Positions 50,449 to 51,874 of a stretch of DNA of 64,000 nt are shown here, piece by piece (position 1 is the first letter of the stretch; the number at the start of each line of letters is the position of its first letter). The position numbers and the translations under genes are program-made. The notes beneath the pieces are model-generated. The model was not told the DNA's origin and did not search any database. It saw nothing but the letters and a program-made list of their open reading frames with translations. Location of the stretch: NCBI GenBank assembly GCA_045805265.1, contig JBJMLO010000028.1, forward strand, positions 447-64,446, given 5' to 3'. This stretch comes from Actinomycetota bacterium (lineage in GTDB: Bacteria > Actinomycetota > UBA4738 > JACQTL01).

Positions 50449-50549
50449 CCTCATCCAGAGAGGTGGAGGGACAGGCCCTGTGAAGCCTCGGCAACCCCGG
50501 TGATGCGGGGTGCCAATTCCTGCCGGCGGGGATCGCCGGAGAGATGAGG
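50449..50549 (+). promoter_or_regulatory. SAM-I (S-box) riboswitch aptamer; SD-sequestering hairpin CCTCCTC…GAGGAGG at 50613-50633
   Basis: cCTCATCcAGAGAGGtGGAGGGAcaGGCCCtgtGAAGCCtcGGCAACC…GGTGCCAATTCCTGCcgg…AGAGATGAGg matches S-box consensus blocks; P1 CCTCATC/GATGAGG; downstream 7-bp anti-SD pairing with the thrC-like RBS. Confidence 0.8.
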
Positions 50550-50638
50550 GAAGTCCTGGACTTCGAGGCTCGTCGCGGGGAACGCGGCGGGCCTTTCGGT
50601 TTCCCGGGCGACCCTCCTCGGCTCGTGAGGAGGACGAC

Positions 50639-51874
50639 GTGTCGCGTTACCTGCAGGGACTGCGATGCCGGGCCTGCGACGCCCGGTACCCGGCGGAGGT
50701 CCGCTCGATCTGCGACGAGTGCTTCGGACCCGTCGAGCCGACCTACGACGAGGAACGCATCCGCGCGGAGGTCACGCGCGCCGACGTGGAACGGGGGCCG
50801 CGGTCGTTGTGGCGGTTCGAGGCGCTGCTGCCCGCGGTTCGAAACACCGACGTCGACCTCGGCGACGGGTGGTCGCCCCTGCGACGGGCGCGGCGGCTGG
50901 GCGCCGAGCTCGGCCTGCCGAACCTGTGGCTGAAGGACGAGACCCGCAACCCCACGCACTCCTTCAAGGACCGGGTCGTGTCGGTCGCGCTGACCAAGGC
51001 GGTCGAGCTGGGGTTCGGCACCGTGGCCTGCGCCTCCACCGGGAACCTGGCGAACGCCGTCGCCGCCCACGCCGCCGCGGCGGGACTCCGCGCGGTCACG
51101 CTGGTCCCCGCCGGGCTGGAGCCCGCGAAGCTCACCGCGTCGGCGGTGTACGGCGCGACGCTGGTCGAGGTCGACGGCACGTACGACGACGTCCAGCGGC
51201 TGTGCTCCGAGGCGAACGAGGAGCTCGAGGGCTGGGCATTTGTCAACGTGGGGTTGCGGCCGTACTACGCGGAGGGCTCGAAGACCATCGCCCTCGAGAC
51301 GGCCGAGCAGCTGGGGTGGCGGGCGCCGGACCACGCGGTGGTGCCGGTCGCGTCCGGCGCGTTGCTGACGAAGGTCGCCGAGGGGTTCCGGCAGCTCTAC
51401 CGGATCGGGTTCCTGGACGAGGAACCTTCGGTTCGTGTCTCGGGCGCCCAGGCCCAGGGATGCTCGCCCGTGGCGACGGCCTACCTGGAGGGAACCGACG
51501 AGGTCCGGCCCGTACGCTATCCGGAGACCATCGCGAAGTCGCTGGCCATCGGCGCGCCGGCCGACGGGCGCTTCGCGCTGGACGAGGTCCGTCGCTCCGG
51601 CGGCGCGCTTGCCGCCGTCACGGACGACGAGATCGTCGAGGCGGTCGGTCTGCTGGCCCGCACCGAGGGCATCTTCGCCGAGACCGCCGGTGGGGTGACG
51701 ATCGCGACGCTCGAGCGCCTCGCGTCCGGCGGCGTGATCAAACCCGACGAGACCGTCGTCGCGTACATCACGGGGATGGGACTGAAGACCCTGGACGGCT
51801 TCGGCACCCGTTTCGGCATCGAGACAACGATCGGCCCGAAGGTGGAGGCCCTGCTGGAGGCCGTCCCCGCCTAG
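50639..51874 (+). CDS. threonine synthase-family PLP enzyme (ThrC-like) with N-terminal zinc ribbon
   Basis: GTG after GAGGAGGACGAC; CRACD…CDEC ribbon; PLP-Lys motif THSFKDR; fold-type II; under SAM riboswitch so true substrate/product uncertain. Confidence 0.7.
   Translation: MSRYLQGLRCRACDARYPAEVRSICDECFGPVEPTYDEERIRAEVTRADVERGPRSLWRFEALLPAVRNTDVDLGDGWSPLRRARRLGAELGLPNLWLKDETRNPTHSFKDRVVSVALTKAVELGFGTVACASTGNLANAVAAHAAAAGLRAVTLVPAGLEPAKLTASAVYGATLVEVDGTYDDVQRLCSEANEELEGWAFVNVGLRPYYAEGSKTIALETAEQLGWRAPDHAVVPVASGALLTKVAEGFRQLYRIGFLDEEPSVRVSGAQAQGCSPVATAYLEGTDEVRPVRYPETIAKSLAIGAPADGRFALDEVRRSGGALAAVTDDEIVEAVGLLARTEGIFAETAGGVTIATLERLASGGVIKPDETVVAYITGMGLKTLDGFGTRFGIETTIGPKVEALLEAVPA

Follow-up and report, generated by a model that had tools for sequence, protein, structure and literature searches.

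We analysed a 64-kb stretch of contig JBJMLO010000028.1 from an uncultured Actinomycetota metagenome-assembled genome (MAG), hereafter the window (64,000 nucleotides, G+C content 72%), in which a gene for a threonine synthase (ThrC)-like enzyme lies behind an S-adenosylmethionine (SAM) riboswitch. A scan of the whole window against Rfam (cmscan) returned a single match above the gathering score, the SAM-I or S-box family RF00162, which covers the full model, positions 1-108 of 108 (95.2 bits, where the gathering score is 44.4; E-value 1.2e-21). An initial annotation of this DNA had placed an S-box aptamer before the thrC-like gene, and the covariance model agrees with it, including the P1 helix as it had been drawn: CCUCAUC (50449-50455) pairs with GAUGAGG (50543-50549). 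After a gap of 88 nt the coding sequence follows on the same strand, from a GTG codon to a TAG ending at 51874. The start is 50639, not 50640; in support of it, relatives share the N-terminus MSRYLxGLRCR, with an ATG at the same place, and a Shine-Dalgarno (SD) sequence GAGGAGG lies 5 nt upstream. The protein matches Pfam PALP over residues 73-379 (E-value 2e-74), and we call its gene metM-like for the reasons given below. The features of the locus and of a second, sulfur-related region of the window are collected in Table 1.

Table 1. Positions of the leader elements, the metM-like gene and other features in the window
Feature	Position	Strand	Basis or remark
SAM-I (S-box) riboswitch aptamer, SAM binding predicted	50448-50550	+	RF00162 full-length match
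Putative -10 hexamer TACCAT, inferred, weak; possible -35 TTGCGA at 50364-50369	50388-50393	+	conserved block
5'-leader hairpin just 5' of the aptamer (GCCCUCGGG...CCCGGAGGGC)	50414-50443	+	fold prediction
Small hairpin GAAGUC/GACUUC	50550-50564	+	predicted folds; forms with P1 closed; 5' half enters the alternative ON helix
GC-rich hairpin H, 13 bp, then U-rich tail UUUCGGUUUCCC	50565-50595	+	scaffold and/or weak terminator
Anti-SD segment CCCUCCUCG	50612-50620	+	partners: SD (OFF) or P1 3' strand GAUGAGGG, 50543-50550 (ON)
SD sequence GAGGAGG, 5 nt before GTG	50627-50633	+	sequence; invariant in 8 clade members
metM-like gene: ThrC-fold enzyme dependent on pyridoxal 5'-phosphate (PLP), 411 aa, predicted O-phosphohomoserine-dependent homocysteine synthase	50639-51874	+	PALP, signature, tree, context
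N-terminal zinc ribbon (Cys10, Cys13, Cys25, Cys28)	50663-50725	+	four Cys invariant in 85/85 family members
PLP-binding lysine codon, K110 in SFKDR	50966-50968	+	K invariant in 90/90 aligned MetM-like and ThrC sequences
98-aa open reading frame (ORF)	51876-52172	+	doubtful coding; G+C at third codon positions (GC3) 0.85
Sulfite/nitrite reductase	17719-19365		
Phosphoadenylylsulfate/adenylylsulfate (PAPS/APS) reductase CysH	19427-20272		
155-aa ORF without Pfam match	20269-20736		
Two sirohaem-synthesis genes	20739-21449 and 21446-22252		

The MetM-like family and threonine synthase

The sample of relatives comprises 80 loci of species-representative genomes and another eight of metagenome assemblies, almost all of them from Acidimicrobiia or unclassified Actinomycetota MAGs; the loci are referred to by L numbers. 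The window belongs to a clade of nine contigs whose proteins are 81-100% identical (the window, L001, L003, L004, L005 and L085-L088), hereafter the clade. A covariance model made from four aptamers located a SAM-I aptamer directly 5' of the metM-like gene in 81 of 85 sources, and an upstream aptamer is also present in all four further clade members and in Nonomuraea.

To describe the family we aligned 85 members with five solved ThrCs (PDB 2zsj, 1uim, 2d1f, 6cgq and 1e5x). These are the solved structures closest to the window protein (E-values 1e-34 to 1e-57), and none of them has the N-terminal extension. Signature columns were those with a single residue in at least 95% of the family and a different one common to four or all five of the ThrCs. 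The 31 columns obtained separate the family from ThrC, and the window protein carries the family consensus at all 31. From ThrC to the family, STGNT changes to STGNL, VN-SVNPxR to VNVxLRPYY, PVGNAGN to PVASGAL, IGNPASW to IGxPADG, CEPAS to AETAG and TGNGLKD to TGMGLKT; the window protein itself has STGNL, R-P-Y-Y and A-S-G-A-L where the ThrC motifs STGNT, N-P-x-R and G-N-A-G-N are expected. Several such residues are reported, for T. thermophilus ThrC, to bind the phosphate groups of the substrate and of PLP. In a neighbour-joining tree drawn without bootstrap and with a ThrC set of five, the family is monophyletic and the longest internal branch sets it apart from the ThrCs. The window protein groups with the family in this tree, and its clade nests beside L006, L002 and L010, all of which have metO, the gene of the sulfur carrier described below. 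The canonical ThrCs have the same fold and PLP lysine motif SFKDR as the window protein and probably the same substrate; they differ from it at the 31 columns, in having no zinc ribbon and in adding water rather than sulfur. The zinc ribbon had been taken in the initial annotation for a mark of a variant system. Since its four cysteines are kept in every family member, including those with a partner gene, it is a family trait and not a peculiarity of the window gene.

The gene context of the relatives points in the same direction as their sequences. An ORF of about 91 aa lies 3-120 nt 3' of the ThrC-like gene in 77 of the 80 genome loci and is also found in L002, where both genes overlap; in two of the three genome loci that lack it, the contig ends within about 130 nt of the gene. 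Its product is a sulfur carrier of the ThiS/MoaD family (PF02597) ending in ...AVAGG (GGA in L006). In all, 79 relatives have an adjacent carrier, and it is this protein ending in GG, instead of the NIL-type protein supposed in the initial annotation, that is the normal partner of the enzyme. The L006 carrier (7218-7505) ends in ...AVAGGA and those of L002, L010, L016, L084 and Nonomuraea in ...AGG; the residue after GG in L006 would need removal by a Mec-type peptidase, as in CysO-type systems. In the CysM-CysO-Mec system of Mycobacterium tuberculosis, a fold type II PLP enzyme likewise acts on an O-phospho amino acid with the thiocarboxylate of a ThiS-like protein as sulfur donor. That system differs in converting O-phosphoserine to cysteine, in using a CysK/CysM homologue and not a ThrC homologue, and in having no riboswitch.

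Nonomuraea gerenzanensis, a cultured actinomycete (L089; locus at 11.81 Mb of NZ_LT559118.1), has the arrangement of the relatives. An RF00162 match of 68.7 bits is followed by a zinc-ribbon MetM-like gene, whose product is 53.6% identical to the window protein, and 25 nt further downstream by a 91-aa ThiS-like, metO-like gene. The genome has a canonical thrC as well, 9 Mb away, whose product shares 66.7% identity with M. tuberculosis ThrC. The aptamer and the zinc-ribbon protein are thus shared with the window, and the downstream metO-like gene and the canonical thrC elsewhere in the genome set Nonomuraea apart from it. The record itself, named 'Nonomuraea gerenzanensis plasmid I', is of 11.85 Mb, bears 10 annotated features and contains housekeeping genes (thrC; groEL beside metO), so that it is evidently a chromosome filed as a plasmid.

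An equivalent system is known from Streptomyces albulus, in which metM-metO was described by Hasebe et al. (2024, Appl Environ Microbiol 90:e01247-24), and is related in PMC12172450 and in bioRxiv 10.1101/2024.10.14.618325. According to the bioRxiv text, MetM is a homocysteine synthase that acts on O-phosphohomoserine, depends on MetO thiocarboxylate and is 'often misannotated' as threonine synthase; the pathway given there is MetM/MetO/Mec/MoeZ, with MetO as the sulfur carrier (bioRxiv 10.1101/2024.10.14.618325). A SAM riboswitch upstream of S. albulus metM is mentioned in PMC12172450, citing Hasebe 2024. The window shares with S. albulus the leader riboswitch and the ThrC-homologous PLP enzyme commonly annotated as threonine synthase, and the 79 relatives share with it the small sulfur-carrier gene directly after; the window clade differs in having no adjacent metO and in its host, an uncultured Actinomycetota MAG. 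In S. lividans TK24, RF00162 was mapped in the 5'-untranslated region (5'-UTR) of a two-gene 'threonine biosynthesis' operon, SLIV_16930-SLIV_16925 (PMC8079986), with the same aptamer and the same pattern of misannotation, in two genes there and in a single gene in the window. The pairing of riboswitch and MetM is therefore the published Streptomyces arrangement. The core finding is known biology and overturns nothing, and the initial annotation overrated its novelty, since a SAM riboswitch upstream of metM-metO had already been published.

We also considered whether the gene could encode a genuine threonine synthase, with its repression by SAM a mere coincidence. Its product scores 263.5 bits with the thrC equivalog TIGR00260, above the cutoff of 167.1, the nearest solved structures are threonine synthases, and in public annotation the window protein and 120 relatives among the matches listed are either unnamed or called threonine synthase, the name that models of the type used by the Prokaryotic Genome Annotation Pipeline (PGAP) would still give it. 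TIGR00260 does not discriminate MetM from ThrC, though, and NF006050, a 'threonine synthase' model of greater length into which the N-terminal extension is built, gave 287.9 bits, under its cutoff of 303; the cysteate synthase model TIGR03844 gave 67.4 bits for a cutoff of 324.9. Several of the 31 differing positions fall inside STGNT, NPxR and GNAGN, the window protein nests among proteins translationally coupled to a sulfur-carrier gene, and Nonomuraea keeps its separate canonical thrC. No second thrC and no metX, metY or metB was found within the 64-kb window. In plants SAM activates ThrC, and a repression of threonine synthesis at high SAM would run opposite to that logic. SAM repression suits an enzyme of the methionine branch and not a threonine synthase, which supports the MetM assignment, and we consider a SAM-repressed threonine synthase very improbable. 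The proposal of the initial annotation, that the enzyme is of the MetM type and not a housekeeping threonine synthase, is supported by the residue signature, by the tree and by the genes found next to it in the 79 relatives. Such a threonine-synthase paralogue would take O-phospho-L-homoserine, the precursor common to threonine and methionine, and exchange its phosphate for sulfur, so that homocysteine is formed, where threonine synthase adds water and forms threonine; this reaction is predicted from family membership.

The clade without an adjacent metO

In none of the nine clade contigs is metO adjacent to metM. A profile of 79 MetO sequences searched against about 150 kb of clade DNA from the nine contigs gave a best E-value of 1.1 (positive controls, 1e-36 to 1e-44), and for the window, tblastn to an E-value of 100 and a listing of the ORFs ending in GG gave nothing credible. 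The L006 MetO retrieved 1851 homologues in a search of 5.8 billion proteins, and among the best 120 of the 1851 none was placed on a known clade contig. Because the clade nests beside the metO-bearing L006, L002 and L010, the absence of metO is derived. The DNA downstream of metM varies: trpG follows directly in L003, NmrA/TetR genes in L004, a flavodoxin gene in L086, a DUF2510 protein gene in L088, a convergent gene for an anti-sigma-factor-type kinase in L001, L085 and L087, and the 98-aa ORF and then an extracytoplasmic function (ECF) sigma factor gene in the window. The metM-trpG interval thus differs in content in every clade member.

The 98-aa ORF had been put forward in the initial annotation as a membrane protein in the place of the usual partner. 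We rejected it as a MetM partner, since it is not conserved, has a weak coding signal, matches no family and lies mostly in an insertion. Its coding signal is the weakest of all called ORFs, it has no Pfam or NCBIfam match, it is absent from 94-95% identical relatives, and no more than its first ~25 residues match L003, in intergenic DNA. Relative to the 95%-identical L003, the window carries an insertion of about 1.7 kb (51964-53670), which contains most of this ORF, the ECF sigma factor gene (52400-52936; Sigma70_r2/r4) and, overlapping that gene, a 227-aa ORF that has no Pfam match and may encode its anti-sigma factor. GC3 in the insertion is 0.85-0.88, against 0.92-0.97 in neighbouring genes. 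That the system may be a variant, as the initial annotation suspected, holds in so far as the locus does differ; the reasons offered for it were wrong, and the actual one is that metO is missing beside metM throughout the clade.

The metM-like gene of the window is under purifying selection (dN/dS, the ratio of non-synonymous to synonymous substitution rates, of 0.07-0.2 against clade members) and is not decaying. At 219 conserved columns, clade proteins depart from the family consensus 27-33 times, compared with 14-22 in the most divergent partnered lineages. We examined 23 apparently clade-specific columns as a sign of a remodelled active site and rejected them as such, given that the sisters with metO have most of these changes too, S241A and the one at N306 among them. 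After a recount in which four more clade members were added and the sister lineages separated, the changes at conserved columns confined to the clade are E12A/V, in the knuckle of the zinc ribbon, N186Q and P394I/V/L; N205G is nearly clade-specific, with one sister lineage also departing. These substitutions are too few to argue for a new activity.

How the clade enzyme obtains its sulfur can be read in different ways. The most likely donor is a ThiS/MoaD-type thiocarboxylate carrier encoded elsewhere, which has, in our estimate, about an even chance. A carrier-free enzyme is a more tentative alternative, in which free sulfide, for example from the sulfite reductase encoded in the window, became the direct nucleophile after the loss of metO. 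The failure to find metO on the nine contigs or, among the best 120 of the 1851 homologues, on any known clade contig is consistent with it, as are the continued selection on the metM-like gene and the presence of sulfite reductase, CysH and sirohaem genes within the window. Others have mimicked MetM activity in vitro with Na2S (PMC12172450). Against a carrier-free enzyme, only three strictly clade-specific substitutions are found at conserved columns, remodelling of the active site is not evident, the zinc ribbon is fully retained, and GapMind gives MetM as dependent on MetO thiocarboxylate. In addition, the contigs cover a fraction of each genome, and a relocated metO or a shared CysO/MoaD-type carrier may lie elsewhere. 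A donor other than a carrier or free sulfide seems improbable. The existence of a metO-less clade with metM under strong purifying selection is a modest new point of this analysis.

Expression platform of the leader

Upstream of the aptamer, nucleotide homology to relatives starts near 50381. The block TACCATC (50388-50394) is kept in the clade and in L002, and CTACCAT or CTATCAT lies immediately 5' of the aptamer in L016 and L084. A consensus promoter scan reported no promoter at the leader, and the conserved TACCAT element was read by eye as a putative actinobacterial -10 hexamer. A leader hairpin of 10-11 bp is predicted at the same spot in the window, L004, L001, L085, L086, L087, L006, L002 and L010, with its shape kept across lineages and its stem sequence differing. 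The hairpin probably belongs to the 5'-UTR, where it could possibly stabilise the mRNA or form part of the switch. Promoter, leader and gene would then make up a self-contained unit of about 50381-51874.

Downstream of the aptamer, two mutually exclusive arrangements can be drawn. In the minimum-free-energy fold, CCUCCUC (50613-50619) pairs with the SD sequence, extended by the pair G50620-U50626, so that the strands of the SD-burying hairpin are CCUCCUCG (50613-50620) and UGAGGAGG (50626-50633). In the alternative, the P1 3' strand pairs with CCCUCCUC (50612-50619) in 7 of 8 pairs, and the helices GUCC/GGGC and GGA/UCC lengthen this pairing and enclose hairpin H. We propose that with SAM bound P1 would close and leave the anti-SD CCUCCUC free to pair with the SD, which would block translation from the GTG. 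Without SAM, the segment GAUGAGGG and the next ~12 nt would pair with the anti-SD region 50601-50619, enclosing H and setting the SD free. High SAM would in this way turn off the MetM-type homocysteine synthase.

Predicted energies are -111.8 kcal/mol with P1 enforced (SD paired, OFF) and -111.7 kcal/mol with the alternative helix enforced (ON). A thermodynamic OFF switch requires just such a pair of equally stable states, between which ligand binding decides. Among seven relatives, the ON fold is favoured over the OFF fold by 0-6 kcal/mol. All eight clade members compared retain both helices; the stems are constant among them, and the loop that joins anti-SD and SD differs in length and sequence. 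The small hairpin behind P1 has 100% of its cells paired in these eight, with one-sided changes only. What the calculations establish is that both helices can form; the switching between them is a model that we infer. Of the translational control by a 7-bp helix proposed in the initial annotation, the CCUCCUC/GAGGAGG helix is real, invariant in the clade and faced by a competing pairing of equal energy, and the control itself is plausible.

The leaders of relatives show other solutions. In 37 of 81 of them GGAGG stands in or beside the P1 3' strand, 4-12 nt from the start, a direct sequestration of the SD, so that translational control is the common design in the family. Many Acidimicrobiia leaders (L023, L028, L035, L037, L050, L054, L055, L058 and other long ones) share a module after the aptamer, CCGCUCGAGGCGCUCGAGAGCGCGUCGAG, which is unrelated to the expression platform of the window and may be a separate conserved platform for the same aptamer. 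Classical Bacillus S-box leaders have the same aptamer class and OFF logic, with an exchange of terminator and antiterminator that uses the P1 3' strand; in the window the P1 3' strand appears to compete for the anti-SD element. Among related leaders the same aptamer is thus combined with three different expression platforms: in one the SD lies within P1, in another a canonical terminator is present, and in the third the anti-SD forms a helix of its own.

Taken as a whole, the reading of the locus as a gene for a MetM-type homocysteine synthase that is turned off by its SAM-I riboswitch and has no metO beside it has in our view a probability of about 0.75. Several observations weigh against it or against the mechanism proposed for it. 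The protein passes the TIGR00260 cutoff, the published two-gene system is incomplete here for want of metO beside metM, and the tie to the characterised S. albulus MetM runs by way of the operon architecture and the Nonomuraea homologue, the closest stand-in from a cultured organism. A covariation test of the SD/anti-SD and alternative helices in eight clade members found none, the paired columns being invariant. Unlike these helices, hairpin H has changed in a compensatory way (in eight sequences 96% of its cells are paired, with five one-sided changes and one two-sided change, CG/GC 3:3), and it is conserved together with its U-rich tail. Its homologue in L006, with an 11-bp stem and the tail CUCUGUUUUC, passes the scan for intrinsic terminators, so transcriptional control may coexist with SD occlusion or dominate it.

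These properties of H lead to an alternative in which the riboswitch acts mainly on transcription, either through H and its tail as a SAM-dependent intrinsic terminator or through Rho cutting short the untranslated leader, and the SD helix is secondary. An antiterminator can be drawn for it, because GAGCCUC at the 5' edge of the aptamer (50446-50452) could pair without mismatch with GAGGCUC (50565-50571), the 5' arm of H, and is invariant in the clade. On the other hand, no intrinsic terminator (a GC-rich hairpin with at least 5 U in 8 nt) was detected in the window between 50000 and 52600 or in the L088 leader; the tail of H has 4 U in 8 and fails the U-tract criterion. The predicted ON helix encloses H intact, so that H can be read as a scaffold, and about half of the related leaders have no room for a terminator. 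We regard a mainly transcriptional switch as unlikely for the window, and intrinsic or Rho-dependent termination, as an alternative or an extra layer, remains a real one. Translational OFF control through the anti-SD/SD helix is plausible, and we lean towards SD occlusion as the main mechanism.

Surroundings of the locus and implications

A sulfate-assimilation cluster with no riboswitch before it occupies 17719-22252 of the window (Table 1). Divergent from the riboswitch lies a reverse-strand gene (47048-50272) for a 1074-aa AAA_16/LuxR regulator of the LAL type (large ATP-binding regulators of the LuxR family), beside another (46308-47045, reverse strand) for a 245-aa protein with a single-cluster 4Fe-4S ferredoxin domain and a partial adenylate/guanylate cyclase domain. 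Of the other clade members, only L004 keeps this pair (97% identity). A 122-aa ORF (45322-45690) situated between gltB and the ferredoxin-cyclase gene matches positions 31-169 of the 238 in the profile of the AbiEii nucleotidyltransferase toxin and is probably a truncated remnant. Two LeuA-like genes (HMGL-like and LeuA_dimer; 28492-30177 and 33228-34802, both on the reverse strand) flank leuB and leuCD, and one of them probably encodes a citramalate or homocitrate-type synthase and not a second isopropylmalate synthase. The region 23145-28123 holds a dihydroxyacetone kinase set dependent on the phosphotransferase system (EIIA-Man-type DhaM, HPr, Enzyme I, DhaL and DhaK) with a MIP channel of the glycerol-facilitator type.

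The riboswitch-metM-metO unit is widespread in uncultured Actinomycetota and not confined to Streptomyces. Metabolic models built on the present annotations of MAGs from Acidimicrobiia and other Actinomycetota will overlook this route to methionine and may wrongly include a second thrC, and the signature columns together with the riboswitch give a simple rule to separate MetM from ThrC. The metO-less clade is a natural test of whether MetM needs its carrier. It is possible, though we think it doubtful, that this uncultured lineage has dispensed with MetO and that its stand-alone MetM, controlled by the SAM riboswitch, uses free sulfide; if true, a threonine-synthase paralogue would carry out the direct sulfhydrylation of O-phosphohomoserine as a single enzyme.

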